Notes under the pieces: model-generated | What the model was told of the DNA's origin: nothing | Seen by the model: only the letters and a program-made list of their open reading frames with translations | The model's database searches: none | Made by a program: the position numbers and the translations under genes | Part shown: piece after piece, positions 1,705-31,806 of the stretch | Numbering within the stretch: the stretch's first letter is position 1 | Layout of the letters: each line of letters opens with the position of its first letter | Virus record (IMG/VR): IMGVR_UViG_3300011215_000001 | Length of the DNA stretch: 64,000 nucleotides | Strand: one strand, 5' to 3' | From: an uncultured virus (IMG/VR IMGVR_UViG_3300011215_000001) | Taxonomy: Duplodnaviria; Heunggongvirae; Uroviricota; Caudoviricetes

Positions 1705-2187
1705 TTATTTTAAACCTACATATTCGCCTTCATTATTATATCTTGCAGGATTAGCAGCAGGTATATGAAAACCATGCATTGAACCACTTTGCATAGCTAT
1801 CTCTTGTGCTTTTGTAACGCCTAATTCAGCATTTAATTCATCAACAGTTTTATTGTCTGGGTTTTGTATAACGAAATATCCAGATACATTTAGTTTTACT
1901 TTAACTACAGTTTCATCTATTGGGTGGATGCAATAACACATTTGAGGCAATCCATCATGGAAATCCCCTTTTTGCAATAAATCTGGTTCTGGTTCAAGTT
2001 CAATAATTTTTTCTCCAGTTTCCAAATTATATTCCCCTTCAAGTCCCTCAATATTATCACGCATATCTCTAAGTTGAGTGTAAGTTTTTTCAAGTTCTTT
2101 CCCTAAAGAAGAACTTGGAATTTTATTAAATTCCTCAACCTCATCCATTAATTCATTCAACATATCAACTAATTTTTCAGTATTCAT
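1705..2187 (-). CDS. hypothetical protein, mobile-element-type C-terminal domain
   Basis: 160 aa, AGGGGG RBS; C-terminal LPQMCY...LGVTKAQEIAMQSGSM..F.IPAANP..Y. Confidence 0.8.
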   Translation of the reverse strand: MNTEKLVDMLNELMDEVEEFNKIPSSSLGKELEKTYTQLRDMRDNIEGLEGEYNLETGEKIIELEPEPDLLQKGDFHDGLPQMCYCIHPIDETVVKVKLNVSGYFVIQNPDNKTVDELNAELGVTKAQEIAMQSGSMHGFHIPAANPARYNNEGEYVGLK

Positions 2188-2203
2188 ATTGCTTCCCCCT
2201 TAA

Positions 2204-2491
2204 TTAATCTCTAAACATTTCATTGTAATCTTTTCTATGTTTGTACAAAATCTTGCTAGCATCTCTGATACTATATTGAACAGAAATCGTATTGAAAGGT
2301 GTTGAATCTTTTTTGATTTCTCTAAAATAAATATTATCAAATGACTTTGTGTCCTTAGAAAACTCTATATATTCCCCTTCATCAATTAAAATAAGCAAGG
2401 TATTATTTACATCGACTTTTCTTAAAATTGATTCAGCATCAGACATGTTTTTAATTGTTGTTAGACTAGATGGTACTAAAAAAATATTCAT
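2204..2491 (-). CDS. hypothetical early protein
   Basis: 95 aa, AAGGAGG RBS, motif upstream. Confidence 0.8.
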   Translation of the reverse strand: MNIFLVPSSLTTIKNMSDAESILRKVDVNNTLLILIDEGEYIEFSKDTKSFDNIYFREIKKDSTPFNTISVQYSIRDASKILYKHRKDYNEMFRD

Positions 2492-2553
2492 CTATTATTA
2501 ACCTCCTTCTATAAAATAAGGTATTTTTAAGTTATGAAATCACACATAAAAGA

Positions 2554-2838
2554 TTACTTTTTTATCCTGTTCTCAAAAATAGATTTAGCGTTTTCATAAC
2601 TTAAATCGTAATCTCCACTATTAAAGCCACTGTAAGAAGTTTTAAATTCCCCAGTATTATAAAGAGTCCACACAGCCCAATTTTTCTCTGGTACTATGCT
2701 ATTTTCCCCTTTTTCAGCCATCACAATTGCATTTTTATTTGAGTCAAACCCTATCTCAATTGATTCAAGATTCATTCTTTCTTTAATCTGTGAAATAGTG
2801 TTAGTTATTTTTTGAAGTTCTTCAAAATTCAGTGTCAT
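2554..2838 (-). CDS. hypothetical early protein
   Basis: 94 aa, GCAGGT RBS. Confidence 0.7.
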   Translation of the reverse strand: MTLNFEELQKITNTISQIKERMNLESIEIGFDSNKNAIVMAEKGENSIVPEKNWAVWTLYNTGEFKTSYSGFNSGDYDLSYENAKSIFENRIKK

Positions 2839-2867
2839 AAATTTACCTGCTTTCTAGCTTATAGAAA

Positions 2868-3443
2868 CTATTTTATCATATCTACTAGTGTCTTAAGCCT
2901 ATTATTTTTGTGTAAAATATTTCTTTTTACACTACTCAGACTATAAATATTTGAGCGATAATCTAAAGTTTCGTTTTTTAAAACATCCTGTACGGTGTAA
3001 GTGAATACATCTCCACTTACAAATGAATTAAAGTCCTCAATTTCTGCTATCATATCCTCCCTAGCTCGTTCAAGCATATTTTTTGTGACTCGTTTCACTT
3101 CGTAACTTTGACGTATCTTCTCTTTGGTGGTAAATATCCAACCTATTTGAATGCTCCCCTGCTTAAATTCAAAAGTTGCAATACCCATGATAATCCCAGA
3201 CTGTTCATATATGTAAACAGGCAGTGAAAGAATCGATTCCCCTTGTGATACTTTTTTTAAAATATCTGTTTTCGTATTGAAATCATCATCGTCAACATTT
3301 ACATCTCCAAGATTATAAACTCTATGCCATGCAACAATTACCCCCACATGATTGTCATAGTATGTACGTGGTGACTCTGCATTTTCATCATAGTCTACAG
3401 TAACTTTAATATTTTCAACTTCAACAACAGTATAGTTTGTCAT
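2868..3443 (-). CDS. hypothetical protein (mobile-element family)
   Basis: start revised to MTNYT at 3443 after AAAGGATGG RBS; DYDENAESPR, LPVYIYEQSGI, QIGWIF motifs. Confidence 0.8.
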   Translation of the reverse strand: MTNYTVVEVENIKVTVDYDENAESPRTYYDNHVGVIVAWHRVYNLGDVNVDDDDFNTKTDILKKVSQGESILSLPVYIYEQSGIIMGIATFEFKQGSIQIGWIFTTKEKIRQSYEVKRVTKNMLERAREDMIAEIEDFNSFVSGDVFTYTVQDVLKNETLDYRSNIYSLSSVKRNILHKNNRLKTLVDMIK

Positions 3444-3525
3444 TATATACCATCCTTTATTATGTATTTCATCTTTGCAAAGATTAAGGTATGTACGACT
3501 CCAAGAATCACACATACCTTTGTAA

Positions 3526-3963
3526 TTAATTTCTTATAACTTTAAAGTTTTCATGTTTGAAAGGCTTGTTGCATTGTGCCTCATTAAATCCAAACGCTTT
3601 CAATACATCATGGCAACCTCTAGTACCTTCTCCATAGAATCCACCAGAAACACCATAGAAAACTATTGTGTAGCCCTCATGTGTTTTTACTGTAAGTTTG
3701 TAGCTATTTTTTTGGTAAATCATTTCAGCAGATTTTCCATTTAAGAATAAAAGTTTCTCTAATTGCTCTAAGAATTTAATATCATATCTTGTGATACCAG
3801 ATGTATTGAAAGTCATGTAAGCTTGAGAGTTTATATGTTTAACTCCACGCTCTAAATCTTTTTTCAAAGTTTTTAACTTAATACCTTCTCTTGAAGTGCT
3901 ACTGAAACTATACAAGTAGTAATATTTATTTTTTAAAATTGGTCTTTTCAATCTTTCCACCAC
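3526..3963 (-). CDS. hypothetical early protein
   Basis: up to 145 aa; SGGFYGEGTRG motif; true start uncertain. Confidence 0.75.
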   Translation of the reverse strand: MVERLKRPILKNKYYYLYSFSSTSREGIKLKTLKKDLERGVKHINSQAYMTFNTSGITRYDIKFLEQLEKLLFLNGKSAEMIYQKNSYKLTVKTHEGYTIVFYGVSGGFYGEGTRGCHDVLKAFGFNEAQCNKPFKHENFKVIRN

Positions 3964-4048
3964 CCTCTATGTATTAAGGTAAGTGTGTGAAACAATATCA
4001 CACACTCTTTTTCAAAAAGTTTATATTTCCTTGGAAATAACTTGATTA

Positions 4049-4411
4049 TTACCTCAAATATCCAACATGTTTTGTATCAACAGTGTCGTCTTCTTCATTA
4101 AATTTTGTTTCATGAAGTGGCATATTTCTTCCTTCAACAAACCATTTCGGAAGTGGGTAATCTGTTTTCGTTCTATCTATTTTTTCTTCACTACAATAAA
4201 CTTCTTCCCAACCATTTCCGTTATCTTGGAATTCTTTAAAAGTAATTCCATCACCATGATTGTAAGTTCTATCATCATTTTTTGTTGAATCAGTATAGAT
4301 AGTTACTCTTTGTTCTGGATATTCTTCAACAAATTTTTTCCCACCACTTACAATGCCACTATCAATTTGAACTCCATTTTTGTAAATCTTAGCGATAATC
4401 ATTCTCATCAT
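4049..4411 (-). CDS. hypothetical early protein
   Basis: GGAAGGA RBS, motif at 4427-4453; start at one of three clustered ATGs (4411, 4408, 4402). Confidence 0.75.
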   Translation of the reverse strand: MMRMIIAKIYKNGVQIDSGIVSGGKKFVEEYPEQRVTIYTDSTKNDDRTYNHGDGITFKEFQDNGNGWEEVYCSEEKIDRTKTDYPLPKWFVEGRNMPLHETKFNEEDDTVDTKHVGYLR

Positions 4412-17675: not shown

Positions 17676-18902
17676 TTAGAGAAAGAATATCCTAGATTCT
17701 TCCATATAATCATTGAATTCATCTGGATTTAAAATAAATCTAGCCACTTCTGGATATGAACCTTTATTCAATAAACCATAGCAGATACAGCGTTCAATCT
17801 CTTGCTCCAAACTATATAGTCCAGTATTTGTAGAGAACAGATTGCCATAAATATCTTCATACATATAGCAATCATGCAAGTCATCAATAACCATACCCTC
17901 AATGAATAATCCACCAATATGGTTGTACACTGCATTGATAAAGCCTTTGTATGCATATGCACAGTGTTCATCTTCTGTCATATATTTAAATCTAGGATTT
18001 GCTTTCAAGTTTTCAATTACATTAATTCCAATTTTAATAACATCACTATTAGTTAATTCAAAGTTGACTCTTTTAGAAGCTTGTCTAATTTTTCTCCAGA
18101 TTGAAGTAAGCATATCTCCAAAATAAGAGAATCTTTCATTGATTTCTTTTGGAACATACTTAATAATCTTTTTATTTCTTGTATCAACGATACTATCATT
18201 GTCAATACTGTTGTTGAAAGCATCTATTTTGTCTTGTAACAACTTGTACATACTATCAGCTACATCATTTTCTTTAATAGAATTATCACCTTGAGAATTA
18301 ATAGATTCTGATTCATTTGTATCTGAATGAGCCTTACTGACATTATTATGTTTATTCATATCTTTAATAATTGGTAGAGAAGAAGGTAAAGAATAGGTAG
18401 GGGAGTTTAAATCTCCTGTATCCTTACTCTCCGTAGGGTTCGTAAGAATTTCAGCTTTCTCACTAGCTTTCTTTTCAGCTTTCTTATTTAGCTTTAAAAA
18501 GTCCGATATTCTCTTAAAATTTGAATGAACTGTAAAGAAATGGATAGGACTACCAAGCCCATTTTGCTTGCGAGAGTGTCGATTTACTTTTTGTAGTATT
18601 CCAATGTCTCTGAGCTTCTTTAAAGCTGTTTGAATAGTTGATTCACCAATCTTATTCTTTCTAGCTATATTCTCTGGTTTAGCGTAGAAAAAGCCTTTCT
18701 CTGCTGATAAGAAGCAAATGTAGTCTATAGCATTTCTTGTAGCTTCCTTAAGATTGTACCAACTGTCCCCAAACCTTTTTATAATTTCATCTAACATTAG
18801 AAACTTGATTTCCTTTTTAGTCTTTTTATCAATGGTAATAGTGCCAAATTCAGATACTAAAAAGTTAAATTCTTCTGTAGAAATTTTTCTATTCTTTGTC
18901 AT
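17676..18902 (-). CDS. putative replication initiator (N-terminal winged HTH)
   Basis: 408 aa; GFFYAKPENIARKNKIGESTIQTALKKLRDIGILQKVNR wHTH then low-complexity linker; next to partition operon. Confidence 0.6.
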   Translation of the reverse strand: MTKNRKISTEEFNFLVSEFGTITIDKKTKKEIKFLMLDEIIKRFGDSWYNLKEATRNAIDYICFLSAEKGFFYAKPENIARKNKIGESTIQTALKKLRDIGILQKVNRHSRKQNGLGSPIHFFTVHSNFKRISDFLKLNKKAEKKASEKAEILTNPTESKDTGDLNSPTYSLPSSLPIIKDMNKHNNVSKAHSDTNESESINSQGDNSIKENDVADSMYKLLQDKIDAFNNSIDNDSIVDTRNKKIIKYVPKEINERFSYFGDMLTSIWRKIRQASKRVNFELTNSDVIKIGINVIENLKANPRFKYMTEDEHCAYAYKGFINAVYNHIGGLFIEGMVIDDLHDCYMYEDIYGNLFSTNTGLYSLEQEIERCICYGLLNKGSYPEVARFILNPDEFNDYMEESRIFFL

Positions 18903-20254: not shown

Positions 20255-20830
20255 TTAAGAATCTACTCCATTTGGATTTGCTTTAAGTAATGCAGACATG
20301 TTTTTTCTGCGAGTAGGGGGAGGGGTAGTTTTTTGTTGTCTATTGCTTACTACAGGTTTTCTTTCTTGCTTCCCATCATCTTCTTTATCACTTTTTTCCT
20401 CTTTAAAGACCTCATGAGGGGTGCTGTCAACATGTGGTGCTACATAAGTAGGATTTGTCTGTTTTTTTTCTTCTTCTTGTTCTAACAATGATTGTTGAGC
20501 ACTAGCAGATGGACTCCAAGAATTTGTACGAACATTACTTGGAGTGTTATAAATACTTTGGTGTTGGAAGTGTTGAGCTTGAGCCTCTTGAACAGAAAAA
20601 TGTTTTTGTAATAAAAATTTTATTAAACCACTGAAAGAACTGTGTTCAAGTAGGGCATTTCGTAACAAGCCCATTTGTAGGCTATCATCTTTATTGAATG
20701 AAACAGCTTGAGTAATGTATTGACCCTTTGTAGTAGAATATAAGTCTTCTAGGTATTCATCTATATTGTCTGAGCTAAGTGGAATGTTTCTCCACTTAGC
20801 TTTTCTCCAGTCTGTATTCCTTTTTGACAT
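20255..20830 (-). CDS. ParR-like partition adaptor (RHH-like plus disordered tail)
   Basis: TAATG overlap with parM-like gene; ITQAVSFNKDD...SFSGLIKFLLQKHF followed by low-complexity tail. Confidence 0.65.
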   Translation of the reverse strand: MSKRNTDWRKAKWRNIPLSSDNIDEYLEDLYSTTKGQYITQAVSFNKDDSLQMGLLRNALLEHSSFSGLIKFLLQKHFSVQEAQAQHFQHQSIYNTPSNVRTNSWSPSASAQQSLLEQEEEKKQTNPTYVAPHVDSTPHEVFKEEKSDKEDDGKQERKPVVSNRQQKTTPPPTRRKNMSALLKANPNGVDS

Positions 20831-21810
20831 TATTCACCCTCGCTCTCATCATGACTTTCTGCATAATAGTCTAGTGCGAATTTAAGCATACTTTCTACTT
20901 GAAGAGTAACTGGTTCTTCAACAGCACTTGCATGAGGGAACACCTTTTTGATAGATTCAATTAGTTCATCAACTTTTGCCCCTCCACCTGCTATTTTGAC
21001 CACATCATCCTCTGAAAAAATAGGGAGAAGGGTATTGGCTAGTCCACTTACATAATCATCGAAGTCAATTTCTCCACCATCTACAGTTGAAAGAATTTTA
21101 GTAATATCTAAACCTTCTCTTTCAATTGTACCAGATGAGTTATTGTCTACATCAAACCAATCATCAGCTTCTGAATAAACAGAAGTAGCGTAACCAATTG
21201 TTCTAGAGCCTAAATTTATCCATCTAGTTATTCCTTCTGAAACTTCATATCCATAAGGGATGATTAATTCCTCTGAAACAACTAAAACATCTTGAATTTC
21301 AAAACTATATTCTTCACCATTAATAAATAGTGTATGGTTGCCTGTCAATTCTTCTTTAATAGCATTTATTTCAGTTTCAGTATATCTTTTGTAAGGAACG
21401 CATGTGATAACATTGTTGATATCGTAACCATATAGGGCTACTCCTAACAAAGCTGAAAGGGTGAAATAAGGTGTAGCTTTAGTGTTAGTATAAGATGTCA
21501 TCAATCTAGAATCTCTCATTAATAATCCGAAGAAATAATGTTTACCATTCCATTCAACATCATATGAGCCTTCTGGTAGAGCTCCTTGGAACTGTCTACC
21601 TTTACTGTGTCCAAGTCCTTTTTGACTTGGCATTACAAAAGGCTCTTCCATTGTTTCTGAAAATATTTTTGTATTATAACCACCATTATCAATTGCTATG
21701 ATACCTGTAGTAAGTTCCTCTGTTTTAACAATCACTTCTTCTTGCACCACTTCAAGAGCTTTATTAGCCTTAGCTACGCTTCTACCTTTTTTAACTGTTG
21801 TTTCTGCCAT
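20830..21810 (-). CDS. parM: ParM/StbA-family actin-like partition ATPase
   Basis: IAIDNGGYNTK (phosphate 1), WINLGSRT (phosphate 2), IAGGGA (adenosine); AAGGAG RBS. Confidence 0.85.
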   Translation of the reverse strand: MAETTVKKGRSVAKANKALEVVQEEVIVKTEELTTGIIAIDNGGYNTKIFSETMEEPFVMPSQKGLGHSKGRQFQGALPEGSYDVEWNGKHYFFGLLMRDSRLMTSYTNTKATPYFTLSALLGVALYGYDINNVITCVPYKRYTETEINAIKEELTGNHTLFINGEEYSFEIQDVLVVSEELIIPYGYEVSEGITRWINLGSRTIGYATSVYSEADDWFDVDNNSSGTIEREGLDITKILSTVDGGEIDFDDYVSGLANTLLPIFSEDDVVKIAGGGAKVDELIESIKKVFPHASAVEEPVTLQVESMLKFALDYYAESHDESEGE

Positions 21811-21853
21811 TTTAAATTCATCTCCTTAGAATGTATAACTTATTACAATGTAA

Positions 21854-21882
21854 ATACTACCATATATTTTTTTCCTTTGCAA
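21854..21882 (-). promoter_or_regulatory. sigmaA-type promoter of partition operon
   Basis: TTGCAA-N17-TAGTAT with extended TG. Confidence 0.6.
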
Positions 21883-21887
21883 CAATA

Positions 21888-22075
21888 TTTAAAAGGTTTT
21901 AAACATAAAAAGATATTATATGTTTTATAATTCTATAAAACCTTAAAAAGCTTATATACCGTTTAAAGATATTAAACGTTGTATAGAAATATAAAAGTAT
22001 TTTATAAAATTATAAAAGGTTTTAAATACTTTAAAAGGTTAAAAAGGTTTATAATGAAATAAAATGTTTAAAAGA
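21888..22075. repeat. AT-rich repeat array C upstream of parM (parC candidate)
   Basis: repeated TAAAAGGTTT(T) units at ~21890, 22013, 22032, 22041 plus variants, abutting the -35. Confidence 0.65.
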
Positions 22076-22175
22076 ATCAAAACGTGAAAAATACAGGTGC
22101 AAAATTTTATACTTTAGATTGATGACTAAAAATATATAAGGTAATATAACTCTATATGAAAGGTGGAAGCAAAAT

Positions 22176-22934
22176 ATGACTATTTTTGAAAAAATATCTT
22201 CTAGCAATAATATAGAGATTCAAATGCCAAACGAAATTTTTGCGGATTTTAACAAAATGCAATTTAAAAACTACAAACATAAATGTTTTGCCTATTGCTA
22301 CTATTACATATCAAATTACTTGTATAGAAATGTAGTTTATGGGTTGGGATATGCTTCTGAGCTATCTATGAAGAGACTTGCTTTGTATATGGTAAGTAGC
22401 TACAACTCAGTATCATATATAATAAGAAAAGATGGACTGTTGGATAATAGTAAATACACTGAAACTACTACTGACTTCCCAGTTTCTTACACATTGAATG
22501 ATGGAATATTAGATTTCTTTGGCATTAAGTCACTGGATAGGGGGGTTATTAAATCTAGCAATAGACTTTCTGTGAAAATACCATTAAAATCCTTTGTACG
22601 AGAGCCCCACGAAGGTCTGGATGACTACTATACTGGTACATATTATCAATTCGCAAACACACATAATGTTCCATATAAAATATTTGCAAGAACAATTAGT
22701 GATTCTGAACTAGGAATAGTTGGATTTTACATATTAAGCTACTTGAAAATGATGTGTGATAGATTCCCACAAGGATATCAAATATCAAACGAAGACTTAT
22801 CTATCAATGTTGGATGTGCTTCAAGAACAATAATTAATTACACAAAGAGGTTAGAGATGGAGGGATACATACAATCAGATAGAAAAAAAATAGGGAATAA
22901 GTTATTTGAAAAAATTTACAAATGTAGCTTCTAG
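22176..22934 (+). CDS. wHTH DNA-binding protein, Rep-like
   Basis: 252 aa, AAAGGTGG RBS; C-terminal GYQISNEDLSINVGCASRTIINYTKRLEMEGYI HTH. Confidence 0.65.
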   Translation: MTIFEKISSSNNIEIQMPNEIFADFNKMQFKNYKHKCFAYCYYYISNYLYRNVVYGLGYASELSMKRLALYMVSSYNSVSYIIRKDGLLDNSKYTETTTDFPVSYTLNDGILDFFGIKSLDRGVIKSSNRLSVKIPLKSFVREPHEGLDDYYTGTYYQFANTHNVPYKIFARTISDSELGIVGFYILSYLKMMCDRFPQGYQISNEDLSINVGCASRTIINYTKRLEMEGYIQSDRKKIGNKLFEKIYKCSF

Positions 22935-23154
22935 TCGGTTGATAGCCAGTAGACAGAGTTCGACCAGATACGGTTCTGACAGCTTTGGGGGCTTGGTATC
23001 GTACAATGTGGGTTAGTGTCGATTCATACTTTACCAAATACGAAAAATGTCTTACATGGCTTGCTAGGCATCTTAAAATTAGACAAACTAAAACCCCTTT
23101 CTTTTGCTATAAAGCAGATGGAGGGGTTTAATGCTGTAAATGTAAGCAAATTTA

Positions 23155-23272
23155 TCTAAAGTGTAAAAAAGCATACACACCTATATAAATAGATTATATT
23201 ACTAACATATATATATACATATATTTACTACTATACTACTTATAAAGGAGGTGCAACTTTTTACACTTTAGA
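23155..23272. repeat. 15-bp perfect inverted repeat around an AT-rich core (origin- or recombination-site-like)
   Basis: TCTAAAGTGTAAAAA (23155-23169) / TTTTTACACTTTAGA (23258-23272); related 21/24 copy at 22095-22118. Confidence 0.6.
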
Positions 23273-23276
23273 CATT

Positions 23277-24389
23277 TTAGTTTTTACCATTTAATTCAAG
23301 TTCTTTGTTATTGGCTTGTAAAGCTCTCAATAATTCAAATTTAGCCATATCAGAAATATTAAGTATTCCATTTAACAATTCTTCATAAGTAAATTTAGAG
23401 AATTCTTTATTAGCGTCTATATCTTTATCTAAAGTATAGGAAGCTTGATTTGAAAACTTTTTATTAACTTTAAGATAATATTCATCTGTGGTTACTATAG
23501 ATTTATGATTGCCTTGTTCTTTAGCTTTTCTTAAATCTCCAGTAAGCTCTAGTACCCTGTTTACACCAGTTTTTTTAATACTGTGGAATTTAATATTTCT
23601 TCTTTCATCAATATTAAAATGATTAACCATTTCTTGAATGTATTCTCCTACAAGGTGTCTGTGTAGTTTTCTAAACAATTTACCAGTAGGAGGTAAGTTT
23701 TCTTTTAGTTCATTGTAAAGTTCAGTAGAAATAGCTTTCTCTTGAGATTCCCCTTTGTCAATGGTTTTAATATAATCAACTATGTTATCTCCTTCTTCAC
23801 TTTTGTAGAAATGTTTTTCCCAAGATAAATCCAACAAAGATTGAAGTCGAATAGATGTAATTCTTGCTAGTTTAATAAGATAGTGCATTTCATTGCCAGA
23901 TAATTGTTGTTCTAAGGCATAATTTTCGAATGCTAATGTCTCTTCCCAACTTAAGTTTCCATAGGGAGTGCTATCTAGAATTTTCTTCTTATTAATATCT
24001 AGATTATTGAATATAAAGTTATTTACATTTACATAATCAACACGTAAGAAATCGTAGAACTTTTTTACAGACCTAATTTTTCTTTTAATAGATGCTGTTT
24101 TGTAGCCTTCCCCCATGTTTCCCTCAGTTTTTAAATAAGAATAATAGCGAGAAGCATGTAATGATGTCGTTTGCTCAATGTCTTCTAATGTTACAGTTTC
24201 TGGTTTCTTGTTGAAAATTACCTTAAAATACAATTTTAAATCACCTTCATAATTAATTGCTGTAGTAGGAGAAAGGGAGTTTAAAAAAGCATTAAAATTA
24301 TCAATAATATAGTTGTAGCCTATGTTTTCAATGTTGTTATTTTCAATATGTTGCAAGTTATTCATGACGGTTTCGCTCCTTTTGTTCAT
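23277..24389 (-). CDS. tyrosine recombinase-family protein (HxxK variant)
   Basis: SAM-like N-domain; TSIRLQSL (R), IDKG (K), FHSIKK, GNHKSIVTTDEYY (H,Y); likely start ATG 24365 after AAGGAG. Confidence 0.85.
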   Translation of the reverse strand: MNKRSETVMNNLQHIENNNIENIGYNYIIDNFNAFLNSLSPTTAINYEGDLKLYFKVIFNKKPETVTLEDIEQTTSLHASRYYSYLKTEGNMGEGYKTASIKRKIRSVKKFYDFLRVDYVNVNNFIFNNLDINKKKILDSTPYGNLSWEETLAFENYALEQQLSGNEMHYLIKLARITSIRLQSLLDLSWEKHFYKSEEGDNIVDYIKTIDKGESQEKAISTELYNELKENLPPTGKLFRKLHRHLVGEYIQEMVNHFNIDERRNIKFHSIKKTGVNRVLELTGDLRKAKEQGNHKSIVTTDEYYLKVNKKFSNQASYTLDKDIDANKEFSKFTYEELLNGILNISDMAKFELLRALQANNKELELNGKN

Positions 24390-24528
24390 ATAATTAAAAT
24401 TATAGGAATATCGATAATTTGATGTTATAACAATTTTTGCTAAGTGTCAACCATTAGTTTTCAGTAGACGAATACTAAATAAAGTACTATACTATAAGTT
24501 GATATTAAATACAGAGAGGATGGTATAT

Positions 24529-26772
24529 TTGGAAGAAACTATTGAAGTAACAGTTTCGAGAAGAGCTAAATTATATTATAGCGAAGACAGTAGTTGGGGA
24601 ATATTTAAGGTTGGCTTATTAGAGCCTCATAGTGAGGTTGAATTTAACTCAATGTATGAAGAACTTGATAGAACTATTACCTTAAAGGGCTCTATGCCGA
24701 TGTTAGATGAAGGAAAAACATATATTGCTACAGTTAGCATGAAGAAAGATGCAAAATATGGTATAGGATATGAAGTTAAATCAATTTATGAAAAATTATT
24801 GAGTACAAGAGCTGAGATTGAGATATTTCTAAAGACAATACTTAGTTCAAGGCAAGCTGAATCATTGCTACAAGCATATCCAGATTCGAATATTGTAGAG
24901 CTAATTAAAGAAGACAAGGTAGACTTAAGTAGAGTATATGGGATAGGTGAAATCACTTTACGAGCAATCAAACAAAAAATTATAGAAAATGAAAAATACC
25001 AAAAAGCAATTGTTGAAATATCGCACAAATATGACATTCCTTATAAGTCAGTAAAGTATTTGAGTGAAAAATATGGTTCACCAGATGTACTTGTTATGAG
25101 ATTGCAAGAAAATCCATATTTATTATTAGATATAGATGGGTATGGATTTAAAAAAGCTGATGAAATTGCAATGAAAATGGGGATAGCTCCAGTATCACTT
25201 GATAGGGTGAATGCATGTGTGAATCATTTGGTAGATGAAGAAGCCAATAGTGGTCATGCATGGACAAAGAAAAATTCAATAACTAATAAAGCTATAAAGC
25301 TTTTAAACATTAGACTGGATGACGTAGAGAAAGTGTTTGCATATGAGAAGAAAACGTTTCAACTAAAAGATGGCATAGTATATAAGGAGAGATACTTGAA
25401 TTATGAAGTATCTATTAAAAATAACCTTTTAAGACTATTGAATACAGAAAATACATATATTATTGAAAACATAGAACAAATACTTAATAAAGTAGAGGAA
25501 GAACAAGGATTTAATTTTACAGACGAACAACGTAATGCTATTGAACTCGCTATCAAAACGAATGTAGTTGTTATTAATGGTAAAGCAGGTACAGGTAAGA
25601 CCTCAATTATTAAAGGAATTGTAGCTGTATTAAGGTATATTGAAGGGTTAGGGTATGCTACTTGTGCATTATCTGGAAAGGCTTCTCAAAGAATACAAGA
25701 ATCAACTGGTTTAAATTCATATACAATACATAGATTGTTAGGCTCTTCTGGAAGGGAAGGGGTTAGATTTCTTCACAACGAAAACAACAGACTACCATTT
25801 GATATCGTTATACTAGATGAGGGTAGTATGGTTAATTCTGAAATATTTTCAGCTCTAGTTGAAGCAATTGAAAAAGGGTCAAAACTTATAATTGCAGGAG
25901 ATATATCACAGCTAGAAGCAATTGGAGTAGGGAATGTATTAAGTGATTTATTAGAAAGCAAACAAATACCTTCTGTAGAGCTAACAATAGTTCATAGACA
26001 AGCACAAAAAAGTGGAATATTATCAAGTGCCAACAAAGTTCGTGATGGCATTAGATTTTTTGAAGAAAATATAAGTGGTAGAGTGAAGATTGGTGAGTTA
26101 CAAGACTTATTTTTACGATGCTCTCAGGATGATACAGCTATACTCAAGAATGTATTAAAAGTATGTAGTAAATACAAGGGTAATATCCTTGAATTTCAAG
26201 TGCTATGTCCACTAAAAAAACGTGGCTTGTTATCAACTAATAACCTTAATACTCATTTGCAGAAAATCTTTAATCCACATGATGAAAGTGATTTTGATTC
26301 AAGTGAAATCATTAAAAGGAAAGAATCAGTGTTACTTGTAGGAGATAAGATAATTTCTAATGGTAACAACTACGAAAAAAATGTATTTAATGGAACTATA
26401 GGCATAATACAATATATAGACACGAAGAAAGAATTTAATGGCAAAGTTGTAGGAGAGATTGTAATAGAGTTTGAGGGGATAGGGAATGTATCTCTTACAA
26501 ATGATGAAGTTAAAGCTGTTGATTTAGCTTATGCTATATCAGTACATAAATCGCAAGGTTCACAGTGGAAGTATGTTGTCTTAGCTATTAGCTATTCTGC
26601 ATTTATGCTATTAAATAGACAACTTCTATATACAGCTATGACTAGAGCAAAAGAATATCTATTTATTGAGGCTGAAATGAAAGCTTTAATATATGCAATA
26701 GCAAATGATAAAGCAACAAAAAGAAGAACATTTATACCTAGTCTCTTTATGGACGAAAAAAGTTGTGCTTAA
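24529..26772 (+). CDS. recD2: RecD2-like SF1B helicase
   Basis: GKAGTGKT Walker A, TIHRLL, LDEGSM, GDISQL, HRQA, AYAISVHKSQGSQW, LLYTAMTRAK; N-terminal HhH motifs. Confidence 0.92.
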   Translation: MEETIEVTVSRRAKLYYSEDSSWGIFKVGLLEPHSEVEFNSMYEELDRTITLKGSMPMLDEGKTYIATVSMKKDAKYGIGYEVKSIYEKLLSTRAEIEIFLKTILSSRQAESLLQAYPDSNIVELIKEDKVDLSRVYGIGEITLRAIKQKIIENEKYQKAIVEISHKYDIPYKSVKYLSEKYGSPDVLVMRLQENPYLLLDIDGYGFKKADEIAMKMGIAPVSLDRVNACVNHLVDEEANSGHAWTKKNSITNKAIKLLNIRLDDVEKVFAYEKKTFQLKDGIVYKERYLNYEVSIKNNLLRLLNTENTYIIENIEQILNKVEEEQGFNFTDEQRNAIELAIKTNVVVINGKAGTGKTSIIKGIVAVLRYIEGLGYATCALSGKASQRIQESTGLNSYTIHRLLGSSGREGVRFLHNENNRLPFDIVILDEGSMVNSEIFSALVEAIEKGSKLIIAGDISQLEAIGVGNVLSDLLESKQIPSVELTIVHRQAQKSGILSSANKVRDGIRFFEENISGRVKIGELQDLFLRCSQDDTAILKNVLKVCSKYKGNILEFQVLCPLKKRGLLSTNNLNTHLQKIFNPHDESDFDSSEIIKRKESVLLVGDKIISNGNNYEKNVFNGTIGIIQYIDTKKEFNGKVVGEIVIEFEGIGNVSLTNDEVKAVDLAYAISVHKSQGSQWKYVVLAISYSAFMLLNRQLLYTAMTRAKEYLFIEAEMKALIYAIANDKATKRRTFIPSLFMDEKSCA

Positions 26773-26863: not shown

Positions 26864-27979
26864 TTGAAGATGTCTGATGGTCTAGATTATGACTTACAGA
26901 CTGTTGATGAAAGAATGAATGTAGTAGTAGACATAATTAATAAAAATGACGATAGGTTAGTTTCATATTATGACAATTATTACAACCCTCATGTGAATCA
27001 AACAGGGTCATTAAGTGATAAGTCTAGAATGAGTAAAGACCTAGAAAGTCTAGCTAACTACCTGCTTTATGCAGAAGATAGCTCTGCAAATGAGGATACA
27101 ATAACTGAATACAAAGAAAAACGAAATTTAAAACGAGAAGCTTCTATTGAAAACATGATTAAGGTAAGAAGCTTTAAAAAAGAAAACAACAAAACAATAA
27201 TGAAAGTTTCTAAGGTAAAAGTAAACTCGAAAGACAGATTAGAACATCCAGAGCTTAAAGAATCTGGGGAAGTCATTAAAAGACTTACCAAAATGATTGA
27301 AACTGGATTAGACTCACTAGGCAATAAGTTAACAGAAGTAGAAATAAGAAAATTAAAATGGATAAGAACAGATATCCAAAAAGATGAAATAGTTGTAAAG
27401 ACAGAATTAAAAAAATACATAGAATTTCAAAGCGTTACTAAACCAGAGAAAGACCATGAAGCTCTTTCGTATATTCAATTTGATAATGTAGAAATAATTA
27501 GATTGCTAATTGAAAATTATAGTGAACTTAAACAATCATCGTATGATGATACATTTGGATATATGAAGCTTATTCTTATAACACTAGAAAGTTTAATAGA
27601 AAGTACAAACTTTGAACCATATATATTAGAAATAATCAATATGAAAATTGATGGTGTTCAATATGATGAAATGGTTTCTAGATTGGATGAAATTTACAAT
27701 GTCAAAATGACAAATCCAAAGTTAAGTAAAATGACTAGAGAGACTATCCCTAAGATGATTGTTGAAACTTATAAGAACCAAAGAGAAGAATGGTACTATA
27801 CATATTTCGAAAAGGGCAATTACAAAACTTGCCAAAATTGCAAGAGAAATCTTCTTGCTATTACAAAATACTTCTCACCAGACAAACAACAAAAAACAGG
27901 TTTAAAGCCTGTATGTCGAAAGTGCAGAAAAATAAAGGAAAATTCTATACATAAAAGCTTACCAGACAAAAACCTATAA
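26864..27979 (+). CDS. hypothetical protein with HTH-like region and C-terminal Cys4 zinc ribbon
   Basis: 371 aa, AGAGGGTG RBS; CQNC...CRKC; ILEIINMKIDGVQYDEMVSRL sigma4-like helix pattern. Confidence 0.75.
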   Translation: MKMSDGLDYDLQTVDERMNVVVDIINKNDDRLVSYYDNYYNPHVNQTGSLSDKSRMSKDLESLANYLLYAEDSSANEDTITEYKEKRNLKREASIENMIKVRSFKKENNKTIMKVSKVKVNSKDRLEHPELKESGEVIKRLTKMIETGLDSLGNKLTEVEIRKLKWIRTDIQKDEIVVKTELKKYIEFQSVTKPEKDHEALSYIQFDNVEIIRLLIENYSELKQSSYDDTFGYMKLILITLESLIESTNFEPYILEIINMKIDGVQYDEMVSRLDEIYNVKMTNPKLSKMTRETIPKMIVETYKNQREEWYYTYFEKGNYKTCQNCKRNLLAITKYFSPDKQQKTGLKPVCRKCRKIKENSIHKSLPDKNL

Positions 27980-28098
27980 TTTATAGGCTAGATTTGACTA
28001 TTAAAAATGTAAGAGTGCAAGAGGGACTACTAAGGTAGTTGTTTCTTGAAAAAAATAAAAAATTATAAAATGCATTAATGCGTAAAAGGAGAAAAATA

Positions 28099-28386
28099 AT
28101 GACAAAAGAGCAATTTATTCGTAGTTTAGCAGAGGCTAAAGGTATTACAATCAAGCAAGCAAAGGAAGAAACTAATCGTGTATTCGACCATGTAGTTGAA
28201 GTAGTTGCAGGTCTTGGTGATAATGAAAAATTAGATATTACAGGTGTAGTACAGTTCGTAGTTACTGATGTTCCTGCTCGTAAAGGACGTAACCCACAAA
28301 CAGGTGCAGAAATTGATGTAGATGCTACTCGTAAAGTGAAAGCAAAGCCAATGACTGTTCTTAAAAAAGCTGTTAAAGGCAACTAA
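28099..28386 (+). CDS. hup: HU family DNA-binding protein
   Basis: MTKEQFIRSLAE...PARKGRNPQTGAEI...LKKAVK; AAAGGAG RBS. Confidence 0.92.
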   Translation: MTKEQFIRSLAEAKGITIKQAKEETNRVFDHVVEVVAGLGDNEKLDITGVVQFVVTDVPARKGRNPQTGAEIDVDATRKVKAKPMTVLKKAVKGN

Positions 28387-28439
28387 TTAGTATAATTTGT
28401 AAGCTTTCATGGTATAATTAATACCTTTAATAAGTACAA

Positions 28440-28565
28440 TAGCTATAAAACGTATAAAGGTAACAAATACTTTTATACGTTTTATATTATTTTTAAAGTG
28501 TTTTATATTAATATTAGATGTTTATAACATTTTATATGTTTAATACCTTTAAAACCTTTTAAAAA
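28440..28565. repeat. AT-rich repeat array D
   Basis: AATACTTTTA, ACGTTTTA, AACATTTTA, AAACCTTTTAAAA units like arrays A-C. Confidence 0.5.
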
Positions 28566-28654
28566 TAATACAGCATCATGTTTCTAAAAATAATAAAAAT
28601 TATTTTTTAAAAAAGTATTGATATTTTAAAAATCACATGGTACTATATTAATAG

Positions 28655-29500
28655 TTAATAAAACAAGTACTACTAAAACTGAATAAAGTACTAAGTGGCT
28701 TGGCACTGATAAGTTTATGAAAATAAACGAAAAGTCATTTGACAAATGATTGCCATTAAAATGGTCAATCCAAGCAATTCAGAGTTTCTAGTCTTTATTA
28801 TAGTAATGGGTAATAGAGATAGCTTTTGACGCAGGGAGTTAAACGACACTTGAGGATAACATTGTAGAGTGTTTATGAGTTTGGTAAATTCATATTCTCC
28901 AACCAAAGCTGAATAAAAAGTGAAAACTAACTGAAAGGTAATATAGTCTGAGGTTTGACAGCTAAAGGCGATTACCAATTATCAACGAGAATTGTAAACA
29001 GAGGTTTGCATAGTATCGAGGATAATAGCCAGAGTATCTTGTCAGAGAAATGGTATAAAGGAGTGTAGTATTTTGATTTTCAAAAGAAATCGAAGCTACC
29101 AGAACAGCACTTCTTTAGTCAAAGAGAATGATAATGGATATAGCATATATTGGATGAATATAATCTTACAAAAAGCGAAAGTCTGTTCTGGTAAGTAGTG
29201 AAAGCGACTTAAGCCCTCACAATGAAGAATGAGGGGTCTAGAGGGTTGCAAGCCCAAAGGATTTAATAAATTGTTGCATGGTTGACTTAGCGGTTATTTA
29301 GTGCAAGCGATTGTACACAGAATACGGATTTATTGAGTAGCTACTTATTGCAGAGGTACAGCATCCTCTTTAAATAAATGCAGTCGTGAACATTACTGTA
29401 TCGCAGAAATGGTTACAGTGGATAAGAGAAGAATACATAATGTCTCTAAAGATGTTCGATGTAAAGTGTAATCTCAGCTTTTACAGATATATTGAATGTT
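28655..29500 (+). ncRNA. large structured ncRNA candidate (ROOL/GOLLD class)
   Basis: TTGATA-N17-TACTAT promoter (28618-28646); ~800 nt with no credible ORF, raised GC, many hairpins (TACCAGAACAG 29097-29107 / CTGTTCTGGTA 29183-29193); directly 5' of the tRNA array. Confidence 0.65.
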
Positions 29501-29516
29501 TCCACATTCATTATAT

Positions 29517-29590
29517 GGACTTTTAGCTCAGTTGGTTAGAGCCCCCTGCTCATAACAGGGTGGTCATAGGTTCGAGTCCTATAGAGTCCA
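29517..29590 (+). tRNA. tRNA CAT (Ile2-like or Met)
   Basis: cloverleaf, CCCTG-CTCATAA-CAGGG; body resembles Bacillus tRNA-Ile2. Confidence 0.9.
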
Positions 29591-29599
29591 TCTTATTAT

Positions 29600-29672
29600 G
29601 GGGCATTGGCGAAAGGGTTAACGCATCTGACTTTCTATCAGACATTTGCAGGTTCGAGTCCTGTATGCCTTA
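29600..29672 (+). tRNA. tRNA-Glu (TTC), atypical
   Basis: TCTGA-CTTTCTA-TCAGA; GGTTCGAGTCC T-arm; pyrimidine at position 37. Confidence 0.75.
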
Positions 29673-29730
29673 TTGGTGTTACTTTACACAAAGATTTTAT
29701 TAAGATTGCGAGGCTACCGCATAGTAGTCA

Positions 29731-29810
29731 AATTGAGTGGTTTATATAGAAGCAATAATTCATCACCTCCTTTCTATAATGGTTATTTATTTCTAAACCA
29801 CTCTAAATTT
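29731..29810 (+). ncRNA. hairpin RNA carrying a 16S anti-Shine-Dalgarno sequence
   Basis: GAGTGGTTTA/TAAACCACTC outer stem; ATCACCTCCTTTCTA at 29762-29776. Confidence 0.45.
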
Positions 29811-29882
29811 GTCCTATAGCTCAGTTGGTAGAGCACTTGACTGTTAATCAAGGGGTCACAGGTTCGAGCCCTGTTGGGACAG
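29810..29882 (+). tRNA. tRNA-Asn (GTT)
   Basis: CTTGA-CTGTTAA-TCAAG, canonical cloverleaf. Confidence 0.93.
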
Positions 29883-29893
29883 TATATTATTAT

Positions 29894-29968
29894 TGGCGTG
29901 TGGCTCAGTCGGGTGGGGCATCTCTTATTAGATGGAGAAGGTCGTTGGTTCAAATCCAACCACGCTGT
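29894..29968 (+). tRNA. tRNA-like gene, Pro-like body with aberrant 8-nt anticodon loop (possible pseudo-tRNA)
   Basis: TGGCGTG/CACGCTG acceptor, GTTGG-TTCAAAT-CCAAC T-arm, TCTCT-TATTAGAT-GGAGA anticodon arm. Confidence 0.55.
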
Positions 29969-29975
29969 ACATTAT

Positions 29976-30050
29976 TGCAGAGAGGACAAATGGTAAGTCG
30001 TTGGGTTCATAACCCAAAGGAGCAAGTTCGATTCTTGCCTCATGCAACCA
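29976..30050 (+). tRNA. tRNA-Met (CAT), initiator-like
   Basis: TTGGG-TTCATAA-CCCAA (three G-C pairs), bulged acceptor, encoded CCA. Confidence 0.8.
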
Positions 30051-30054
30051 TACT

Positions 30055-30140
30055 GGGAAAGTAAACAAGTGGCTAAAGTAGAGGGACTGTAACTCCCTTC
30101 CTTTCGAGGTTCGTGTGTTCGAATCACACCTTTCCCACCA
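30055..30140 (+). tRNA. tRNA-Tyr (GTA)
   Basis: AGGGA-CTGTAAC-TCCCT, long variable arm, CCA. Confidence 0.9.
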
Positions 30141-30143
30141 ATT

Positions 30144-30233
30144 GGAGTAATGGGTGAGTGGCTGATACCACCTTCCTGCTAAGAAGGCAACGGAGAAATT
30201 CGTTCGAGGGTTCGAATCCCTCTTATTCCTCCA
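30144..30233 (+). tRNA. tRNA-Ser (GCT)
   Basis: CCTTC-CTGCTAA-GAAGG, long variable arm, CCA. Confidence 0.9.
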
Positions 30234-30238
30234 ATAAT

Positions 30239-30314
30239 GGACAGATAACTCAGTTGGTAGAGTGTCAGACTGAAAATCTGATGGTCGTAGGTTCAATTCC
30301 TACTCTGTCCACCA
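30239..30314 (+). tRNA. tRNA-Phe (GAA)
   Basis: TCAGA-CTGAAAA-TCTGA, CCA. Confidence 0.93.
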
Positions 30315-30430
30315 AAAAATAAAAGTGAATAAGTTAATACATAATCTGTTACGAGCAATTCTAGATAAATCTCGTATAAAAAAATAGCTAGTGAATTTTT
30401 TCAGTTTTTTATCCTAGCATATATTGTTTT

Positions 30431-30503
30431 CTCCATATAGTGTAATCGGATAACACAAGGGACTTCTAATCCCTTACTCTAGGTTCGAGTCCTAGTTTGG
30501 AGG
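30431..30503 (+). tRNA. tRNA-Arg (TCT)
   Basis: AGGGA-CTTCTAA-TCCCT; CTAGG-TTCGAGT-CCTAG T-arm. Confidence 0.88.
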
Positions 30504-30512
30504 TATATCAAA

Positions 30513-30548
30513 GCCCTGTTGATGCAATCGTGTCAGCAGGGTTTTTTG
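30513..30548 (+). terminator. intrinsic terminator ending the RNA operon
   Basis: CCCTGTTGA..TCAGCAGGG then TTTTTT. Confidence 0.8.
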
Positions 30549-30570
30549 TATGGGAAAAAGGAGTGTTTAA

Positions 30571-31806
30571 ATGAGAAGTTACAAGAATACAGAAGGTGAA
30601 AGAGTTGTCTTGACAAGAGAACATCTTGAAACATCTGTTCGTATTAAAAAAGAATTACAAAAAGCATCATCTTCAAATAGATGTTCTTGGGTAATGCATA
30701 AAAAAATGATGGAGCAAGAAGGGTTCTTTGACTCTGAAAATAGCGAAACATATAGATTATGCATTAAAGAATATCAAAGGAAAAATGGTGGTTTTAATTT
30801 CATACCTGTTCAAGAAACAAGTTTACAAAGTATCAAAGATGCTGTTGGAGAAATTGCATATTCAAAAGAAGAAGCGAAAGTTGAAGTTAGAAAACTAGGA
30901 AAGCTTCGTAAAGATTTAGCAAAAACAGGTGTAATTACAGAACAGATAAGACAAGCTTTCTTGAATGAAATTGATTGGAAGTTTCCAGAATATGTACATG
31001 AAAGTCTAGAGACTAATAAGGAAAAAACTCTCGTTTTAACAATTAGTGATTGGCATGTTGGTGCTGTTATAAATGATTCAAATGGTAATAATTACAATTA
31101 TGAAATAGCGAAAAAAAGAGTCAACAAACTGGTATATGAAGTTGTTGAGTATGCAAAAACATTTGGTATCAATGAAATAGTTGTAGCAAACATTGGGGAT
31201 ATGATTGAAGGATTATACATGAGGAATTTTAATCAACCCTACGAAGCTGAGTTTGATTTATCAGAACAAATATCAAAAGTAACAAAGTTAATACTAGAAC
31301 TTTTATTAAAATTATCTTCTGTAGCACACGTTAAATATTTTGGGATTGCAGGGAATCATGATAGATGGTTTTTTGATAAAAACACTGTAGATTCAGATAA
31401 TGCAATGAAGATAATCAATGAGTCAATACAAACAGTAATTGATTTAACTAGAAATAAAAGAATTGAATACATAGAAGTTGAAAATGGATTTAACTATGAA
31501 AAAACCCTTGATATTAATGGTAAGAAAATCAAATTTATACATGGTGACTTCGAAGGAAAGACAATTGATATATCGAAACATAGTGCTCTTGAAAATGAAA
31601 ACATTGACTGTATTGTAATGGGGCATTATCACAATTTCCAAGTTATGGACTTGAATTATGGAAAGCTAGGTATAATAAACGCCTCTTTAATGGGAAGGAA
31701 TAGTTATTCTAGAAAATTCAAATCAGCTACAAATGCTTCTCAAACAATACTGATAGTAGATAAGAACAAAATCATGCCAATTAAAGTTGATTTACAAATT
31801 ACATAG
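30571..31806 (+). CDS. calcineurin-like metallophosphoesterase (SPbeta YonJ-like position)
   Basis: ISDWHVG, GDMIEG, GNHD, IHGD, GHYH motifs. Confidence 0.85.
   Translation: MRSYKNTEGERVVLTREHLETSVRIKKELQKASSSNRCSWVMHKKMMEQEGFFDSENSETYRLCIKEYQRKNGGFNFIPVQETSLQSIKDAVGEIAYSKEEAKVEVRKLGKLRKDLAKTGVITEQIRQAFLNEIDWKFPEYVHESLETNKEKTLVLTISDWHVGAVINDSNGNNYNYEIAKKRVNKLVYEVVEYAKTFGINEIVVANIGDMIEGLYMRNFNQPYEAEFDLSEQISKVTKLILELLLKLSSVAHVKYFGIAGNHDRWFFDKNTVDSDNAMKIINESIQTVIDLTRNKRIEYIEVENGFNYEKTLDINGKKIKFIHGDFEGKTIDISKHSALENENIDCIVMGHYHNFQVMDLNYGKLGIINASLMGRNSYSRKFKSATNASQTILIVDKNKIMPIKVDLQIT

Follow-up and report, generated by a model that had tools for sequence, protein, structure and literature searches.

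The window analysed here, a 64,000-nt stretch of DNA from an uncultured tailed virus, contains a gene-free interval (28387-29515) between the gene for an HU-like DNA-binding protein (28078-28386) and a run of tRNA genes, which raises the question of what is encoded there. A preliminary description, made from the letters of the sequence, had placed a large and stem-rich non-coding RNA at 28655-29500, and had proposed that it is an enlarged member of the ROOL or GOLLD kind, or else a new class. GOLLD has been known since 2009, and since 2025 it has to our knowledge been one of just two natural RNAs for which the assembly of closed, protein-free cages is demonstrated.

We searched the whole window against Rfam 15 at the curated thresholds and rescanned the region 28400-30700 permissively at E <= 1. 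The window-wide scan returned ten matches, namely nine tRNAs and GOLLD. The GOLLD match (RF02032; 29056-29480, plus strand) reaches 197 bits, where the gathering score is 150, and covers model positions 1-416 of 416, with an E-value of 4.7e-54 when the whole window is scanned and 1.7e-55 in the local search; the permissive rescan reproduced it. Among the models that the preliminary description had singled out for comparison (ROOL, GOLLD, tmRNA, RNase P and introns), GOLLD alone matches: ROOL (RF03087) yielded zero matches at E <= 1 under permissive filters in 28400-30700, the tmRNA, RNase P and group I/II intron models yielded none, whether in the window at the gathering score or in 28400-30700 at E <= 1, and ARAGORN found no tmRNA. 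The suggestion of a ROOL-like RNA, or of a giant-RNA class unrelated to the catalogued families, arose because the family could not be assigned by eye, and it is compatible with the finding that blastn (word 11) of 28600-29520 matches nothing in GenBank phages or PLSDB plasmids. A full-length match to a catalogued family, far above its curated cut-off and without any ROOL, tmRNA, RNase P or intron match at E <= 1, nevertheless leaves that suggestion barely credible. Both the ROOL-like assignment and the new class are accordingly dropped, and the giant RNA expected beside the phage tRNA genes is a GOLLD. Judged by sequence, the element at 28697-29480 almost certainly belongs to this family, and there is no evidence contradicting its membership. 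When the GOLLD of a related locus (L086, see below) was used as the blastn query, GenBank phages again gave no match, and PLSDB gave a single 69-nt match that we take as chance.

The RF02032 model represents only the conserved 3' half of the GOLLD family. When the upstream part is included, the bounds of the conserved RNA are 28697-29480 on the plus strand, with a core of about 786 nt. The locus is organized as follows.

28444-28486, plus strand: terminator-like hairpin downstream of the HU-like gene, with a stem of 19 bp and a T-run behind it; upstream edge of the GOLLD-tRNA unit
28618-28646, plus strand: candidate sigma-A-type promoter, TTGATA-17-TACTAT with a TG before the -10 element, from a consensus scan
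28653-28696, plus strand: AT-rich stretch predicted as leader, fold not significant (z = -0.06)
28697-29055, plus strand: GOLLD 5' domain, outside the Rfam model, from alignment, covariation and fold z-score
28715-28978, minus strand: 87-aa ORF from the ORF list
29056-29117, plus strand: first hairpin of the 3' domain, Rfam positions 1-62, helices 20-21, with a 3'-side bulge at 29097-29107
29118-29172, plus strand: variable linker of 55 nt with no embedded tRNA, from the alignment
29173-29480, plus strand: rest of the 3' domain, Rfam positions about 117-416, from Rfam and covariation
29481-29515, plus strand: 35-nt spacer between GOLLD and the first tRNA, with a hairpin of 7-bp stem (z = -3.7) and no T-run
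29516-30504, plus strand: array of nine tRNA genes, nine recognized by Rfam and eight by ARAGORN

The conserved RNA therefore lies within the interval 28655-29500 proposed earlier, whose remaining nucleotides belong to the predicted leader and to part of the spacer. The RNA is not enlarged: its core of about 786 nt is to be set against the 700 and 833 nt of published GOLLDs. This is a new copy within an already known family, of full length and normal size.

The relatives used for comparison were gathered by alignment of the capsid protein (42 loci), and two of these carry a GOLLD, namely L086 (a 152.9-kb contig) and L087 (153.6 kb). With 28641-29480 as a single-sequence nhmmer query, positions 49-839 were matched in L086 and L087, and positions 52/53-839 in two copies (L118a and L118b) on the metagenome contig L118, which had been found by a pattern drawn from the 5' part. 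Rfam confirms all four as GOLLD with 204-219 bits. The resulting alignment (A3) has six rows and holds five distinct sequences, two of which are close; L119 is a shorter copy of the L118 locus. RNAalifold predicts 197 pairs from it, 90 of them with compensatory changes against 12-20 when the partner strand is slid by 1-3 columns, and 94.2% of the cells pair as against 38-42% after sliding; these counts lean towards structure, since the structure was predicted from the same alignment. None of 500 shuffles reached the observed measures. Covariation, the absence of which would have spoken against the RNA, is present.

This result bears on a further explanation, that the interval is a decayed protein-coding gene or spacer DNA with chance stems. 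The minus-strand ORF of 87 aa at 28715-28978 could be read as a remnant of such a gene. It is the longest ORF overlapping 28650-29500, ahead of one of 53 aa on the same strand and of 46, 41 and 37 aa on the plus strand, and no ORF of the region reaches a Pfam cut-off, the sole weak match being DUF4286 with 15.2 bits against a cut-off of 25.8. Moreover, the substitutions keep base pairs: with 90 compensatory pairs, a level that 0 of 500 shuffles attain, and a fold that beats all shuffles, the odds of a decayed gene or of chance stems are negligible. The earlier statement that there is no credible ORF is borne out, as is the raised GC content, which is real though modest (35.3% in 28690-29480 against 31.5% in the window and 17.2% in the upstream spacer).

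The more searching question is whether the part outside the Rfam model belongs to the same RNA. The 5' domain consists of a closing helix, GGCUUGG/CCAAGC, and about 17 further helices. It aligns over its whole length with L086, L087, L118a and L118b at 56-60% identity to the window, as compared to 61-64% for the 3' domain in the same four sequences. Compensatory change is seen in 46 of the 91 predicted pairs of the 5' domain (helices 2-19) and in 44 of the 103 pairs of the 3' domain (helices 20-36), and the 5' domain on its own folds better than 100 of 100 shuffles (z = -3.06). In the GOLLD env-38, residues 1-420 form the 5' domain and residues 421-833 the 3' domain, according to the accessible passages of PMC12286853, and published GOLLDs are described there and in PMC12990946 as carrying a less conserved, variable 5' domain of about 400 nt.

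Alternatively, there could be two RNAs, with 28697-29055 as a structured RNA in its own right, about 360 nt long, and after it a "half-size" GOLLD made of the 3' domain only. The Rfam model does end at 29056, the two domains fold separately in the solved structure as described in part of PMC12286853, and no similarity was detected between the 5' part and the corresponding parts of 71 GOLLDs of the lake type (see below). Nevertheless, in each of the five aligned genes one part follows directly on the other in the same order, uninterrupted by anything resembling a promoter or terminator, and the 5' part never occurs without the 3' part among the loci fetched. A variable 5' domain of about 400 nt is, moreover, just what the available text of PMC12286853 and PMC12990946 ascribes to published GOLLDs, and 49 of the 71 lake-type genes share a 16-nt motif with the window, equally far from the 3' end. 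Two separate RNAs are on this evidence highly improbable; by alignment and covariation, the approximately 360 nt upstream of the Rfam match are the 5' domain of the same GOLLD RNA.

The lake-type genes themselves were obtained with a pattern made from two conserved 3' motifs, which retrieved 71 such GOLLD loci from viral contigs. By blastn the last 62 nt or so of the 3' domain are common to the window and these genes, a few of which also share the first 40 nt or so, and no similarity was found between their 5' parts and that of the window. An nhmmer profile of the 5' domain likewise gave nothing significant against the 71 loci (best E about 0.4), and its weak matches, present in nearly all of them, fall on one common motif. 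The 16-nt motif, GAGGnnAACnnUGUAG, lies 640-674 nt before the 3' end in the 49 lake-type GOLLDs that have it, 627 nt before the 3' end in the window, and 651-652 nt before it in L086 and L087. At an equivalent place near the 5' end, CUGAUA occurs in 19 of the 71. A further GOLLD, L034 (245 bits), shares the closing helix of the 5' domain with compensatory change and is not aligned over the remainder; it was left out of the covariation counts because only this helix aligned convincingly. The 5' domain thus appears to be specific to a sub-family while retaining traces of common descent, much as the accessible literature describes it.

Three other searches concern the 5' domain. A covariance model of a 101-position 5' sub-domain (R1) gave eight matches in 72 loci with E-values of 0.39-0.61, which we rejected because all lie about 300 nt outside the GOLLDs and have most of the model deleted. 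The 3'-motif pattern applied to genome contigs recovered one Flavobacterium MAG, which is uninformative for the 5' domain, and the 5'-domain pattern recovered two already known viral contigs together with two metagenome contigs that represent one locus.

The dense stems reported earlier were all found in place, and each of the five maps to an element of GOLLD.

28737-28752, plus strand: TCATTT/AAATGA, helix 4 of the 5' domain, with compensatory change in 3 of 4 pairs
29097-29107 with 29183-29193, plus strand: 11-bp TACCAGAACAG/CTGTTCTGGTA, a covarying pseudoknot helix
3' domain, plus strand: CCCTCA/TGAGGG, a consensus hairpin of the Rfam model (positions 161-187), helix 25
29352-29356 with 29365-29369, plus strand: AGAGG/CCUCU, interleaved with the hairpin GCAU (29361-29364)/AUGC (29378-29381)
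3' domain, plus strand: ACTGTA/TACAGT, a consensus hairpin of the Rfam model (positions 343-369)

Two of the five, the 11-bp helix that closes the linker and AGAGG/CCUCU, are pseudoknots. The 11-bp helix joins the 3'-side bulge of the first hairpin of the 3' domain to the strand that comes just after the linker. Five of its nine tested pairs have changed on both sides, and 84% of the cells pair against 24-53% when slid; the letters read CCAGAACAG/CUGUUCUGG in the window, GAGACAG/CUGUCUC in L086 and UGAAGUAG/CUGCUUCA in L118b. In the accessible passages of PMC12286853 and PMC12990946 the linker is named J13/15 or L15. Because one paper uses the former name and the other the latter, we equate the 11-bp helix with the published P15, which it probably is if the numbering is read in this way. 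The linker of the window (55 nt) is the shortest among the five aligned GOLLDs, the relatives having 76-107 nt, and its counterpart in the solved structure is the disordered loop directed into the cage. The linker of L118a contains a tRNA-Asn, and tRNAs in this position are known from other published GOLLDs, as described in parts of PMC12286853, PMC12990946 and PMC6582537.

The second pseudoknot is of the H-type, formed by AGAGG/CCUCU together with the Rfam hairpin GCAU/AUGC. At the same offset, L118a and L118b have ACAAG/CUUGU with UGCU/AGCA, and L086 and L087 have GUCGC/GCGAC with GCAC/GUGC, so that a pairing of the loop to the upstream strand recurs with different letters in three lineages. 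The cryo-EM structure of GOLLD contains a loop-linker pseudoknot, L22-J17/22, according to the available text of PMC12286853; the AGAGG/CCUCU pseudoknot fits it, provided that the two numberings are rightly equated. Both inner hairpin loops keep a GC dinucleotide and are compatible with the published symmetric kissing loops.

How is this RNA placed for expression? The candidate promoter begins 130 nt after the terminator-like hairpin. It matches the consensus at 9 of 12 positions, and the stretch contains 19 promoter-like sites as compared to 14.1 +/- 3.9 in shuffles. Given this partial match and the lack of enrichment in an AT-rich stretch, the promoter is plausible and well placed, but the "strong" sigma-A promoter of the preliminary description is unsupported as to its strength. 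The predicted leader that follows is not conserved in the relatives, where a tRNA gene occupies its place. At the other end, the first tRNA begins 36 nt after the end of GOLLD, and the scan for terminator-like sites found none between GOLLD and the tRNA genes. The array comprises, in this order, tRNAs for Met-CAU, Glu-UUC and Asn-GUU, a tRNA with an 8-nt anticodon loop, a second CAU tRNA, and tRNAs for Tyr-GUA, Ser-GCU, Phe-GAA and Arg-UCU. With nine genes on the same strand just downstream and no terminator between, the RNA does stand at the head of the tRNA genes as had been proposed, and these are probably co-transcribed with it.

Some members of the array are unusual in themselves. The gene at 29894-29968 (plus strand; Rfam tRNA, 42.8 bits) is read by ARAGORN as having the four-base anticodon "ttag", and in its minimum free energy fold the anticodon stem UCUCU/GGAGA carries a loop of 8 nt, UAUUAGAU, while the variable arm is short; going by this predicted fold, the phage tRNA could read quadruplets or be unusual in some other way. 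The 70-nt tRNA at 29977-30046 (plus strand; 51.3 bits in Rfam, missed by ARAGORN) has an anticodon read as CAU and would be the second Met, an initiator or an Ile2-type tRNA of the array. A tRNA-free spacer of 135 nt inside the array (29674-29808, plus strand) contains TCACCTCCTTTCT at 29763, which we take to be the anti-Shine-Dalgarno sequence at the 3' end of 16S rRNA. The opposite strand reads as a strong ribosome-binding site followed by ORFs of only about 11-13 codons. The motif is predicted to lie in a hairpin loop and is unique on the plus strand of the window, and none of the fetched loci contains the 13-mer.

The genes around the unit identify its carrier. The upstream PHROG matches are to a partition protein, a regulator, a tyrosine recombinase, an exonuclease V (24499-26772), a sigma factor (26864-27979) and the HU-like protein, and the downstream ones are to an exonuclease (30571-31806), terminase, portal, a tape measure protein of 2935 aa and tail proteins. 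The portal shares 63.8% identity with its counterpart in the Brevibacillus phage Sundance, and the gene order is the same, except that the place of GOLLD and the tRNAs is taken in Sundance by PhoH-like and YonK-like genes. The carrier is a siphophage or phage-plasmid of large size and Sundance/SPbeta-like type whose host is a low-GC Firmicute. With the downstream exonuclease as query, no relative could be confirmed in viral or genome contigs. The listings and passages that a literature search returned contained no published GOLLD from Bacillus-type or Sundance-like phages.

With respect to the kind of element, genes for a partition protein, a replication-initiator-like protein and a tyrosine recombinase (20830-24389, 17676-18902) adjoin the structural module. 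The capsid protein of the window is found on a contig of 130,672 nt and those of its relatives on contigs of 134-154 kb, one of which has direct terminal repeats. Going by this gene content, the element may be a phage-plasmid.

The distribution of GOLLD among the related phages follows that of the tRNA genes. With L086 and L087 as positive control, GOLLD was absent from Sundance and from two relatives of 141-154 kb whose capsid proteins are 73-74% identical; with three close relatives lacking it, GOLLD is not essential to this type of phage. In seven GOLLD-free relatives, the fetched region upstream of the capsid gene has no tRNA genes. Thus GOLLD travels with the tRNA cassette, in that the relatives without the one are also without the other. 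In all five of the other sub-group genes examined (L086, L087, L118a, L118b and L034) a same-strand tRNA follows 10-160 nt after GOLLD. In L086 and L087 a tRNA also ends within about 10 nt of the 5' helix of GOLLD, and another starts 42 nt after its end.

Two of these loci have peculiarities of their own. The 47-kb metagenome contig L118 carries two GOLLD genes in tandem (1749-4105, minus strand; 207 and 219 bits) with a tRNA-Asn between them, and the upstream copy has another tRNA-Asn in its linker; two such paralogous cage RNAs raise the question of mixed cages. L087 holds a skipping-rope RNA (RF02924; 1654-1788, plus strand; 47.1 bits against a cut-off of 36.7) within its tRNA/GOLLD island.

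The dispensability of GOLLD, absent as it is from Sundance and the two 141-154-kb relatives, would also be expected if the gene of the window were a real but silent relic that has fallen out of use and moves with the tRNA cassette as a passenger. The match extends over all model positions, however, every helix is intact and the row of the window shows no large deletion in the alignment; moreover, word-index matches point to near-identical sequence in 16 runs of RNA libraries. We therefore consider a silent relic very doubtful. In that search, made with 28600-29600, 19 runs matched in part, and the 16 on record as RNA, metatranscriptomes of soil and silage, contain 35-64% of the words sampled (13 of them at least half); the runs span many study codes but perhaps one campaign, and such word matches carry no strand, position or level. 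They hint that GOLLD RNA is abundant in soil metatranscriptomes. Taken as a whole, 28697-29480 on the plus strand is very probably a complete and intact GOLLD gene, with a 5' domain of about 360 nt, a 3' domain of about 425 nt and a 55-nt linker closed by a pseudoknot, belonging to a Sundance/SPbeta-like phage and promoter-proximal to nine tRNA genes.

The accessible passages of the structural papers describe two solved GOLLD cages, the 14-mer of env-38 (833 nt, PMC12286853) and the 12-mer of Streptococcus agalactiae (700 nt, PMC12990946). The cage is closed and protein-free and has two layers, in which the 5' domains form the caps and the 3' domains the rings, with the linker directed inwards (PMC12286853, PMC12990946). 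As far as the available description goes, env-38 and the RNA of the window have in common the family RF02032, domains of about 400 nt (5') and 410 nt (3'), a disordered linker inside the RNA, a pseudoknot between loop and linker that comes after a long multi-stem helix, conserved terminal hairpin loops and an adjacent Met-tRNA gene (PMC12286853). They differ in that the window RNA has about 786 nt with a 55-nt linker as against 833 nt, and comes from a Firmicute siphophage rather than an aquatic metagenome. Beyond short motifs, the 5' domain of the window has no similarity that sequence searches or the sub-domain covariance model could detect to those of the lake-type GOLLDs, which we take as env-38-like, env-38 itself being compared by its published description. 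The cap geometry and the copy number are not readable from the solved structures because of this dissimilarity to the lake-type 5' domains.

The S. agalactiae GOLLD likewise comes from a Firmicute and combines a conserved 3' domain with a variable 5' cap domain, and by the available description it lacks P9, P11a-c and P21b (PMC12990946). The window RNA is about 86 nt longer, and both inner hairpins are matched in it (Rfam 228-270). A GOLLD from a Mycobacterium tRNA array was reportedly treated by Morgado in 2020. Such a GOLLD lies in a horizontally moving tRNA cluster, with tRNAs on both sides and sometimes in the linker, according to part of PMC6582537. L086, L087 and L118a are arranged in this manner, whereas the GOLLD of the window heads its array behind a candidate promoter of its own, has a linker without a tRNA and sits in a recognizable phage. 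ROOL (RF03087) resembles GOLLD as a large ornate phage RNA beside tRNAs that forms an RNA-only cage, as described in passages of PMC12286853; its fold is unrelated to that of GOLLD, and it has no match here at E <= 1.

A course of events can be proposed for the window RNA. Judging from the gene order, transcription would start near 28653, and cleavage by RNase P at 29515/29516, in front of the first tRNA, would free the 3' end of GOLLD with a trailer of up to 35 nt. In the relatives, the 5' end would likewise be set by processing of the upstream tRNA. By analogy with the solved 12- and 14-mers, many copies would then assemble without protein into a closed two-layer cage, and we consider it likely that the RNA of the window does so.

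Roles proposed for such cages include the encapsulation of tRNAs, ribosomes or other cargo (in part of PMC12286853) and an "inhibited storage" of the embedded tRNA (in part of PMC12990946). The strict linkage of GOLLD with tRNA cassettes speaks for a role related to tRNAs or translation. That the cage serves the takeover of tRNA and translation by the phage, for instance through the retention or protection of tRNAs or tRNA precursors, or through ribosome binding, is a tentative proposal, less likely than not, and the most speculative step. Less likely still, and put forward as conjecture, is a wider reading, according to which the GOLLDs of soil Firmicute phages (the window, L086, L087, L118a/b and perhaps L034) would form a sub-family whose 5' cap domain is built differently from both solved GOLLDs, with another copy number or opening. 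The RNA would then be made at the front of a tRNA precursor or within it, with assembly coupled to processing by RNase P/Z, and the cage would handle phage tRNAs, for example by shielding them from host anticodon nucleases. Were this so, the tandem pair of L118 would allow mixed cages.

The copy in the window leaves the general picture of GOLLD unchanged. It does belong to a small sub-group from large Sundance/SPbeta-like Firmicute phages whose 5' domains, although this part of GOLLD is as a rule poorly conserved, align well enough to yield a fold supported by covariation. These phages also offer a natural comparison, in that sister phages of the same gene order have either GOLLD and a tRNA array or neither, which ties GOLLD to the cassette and not to the phage backbone. 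The sub-group could thereby help in the choice of a tractable system and of constructs for functional work.
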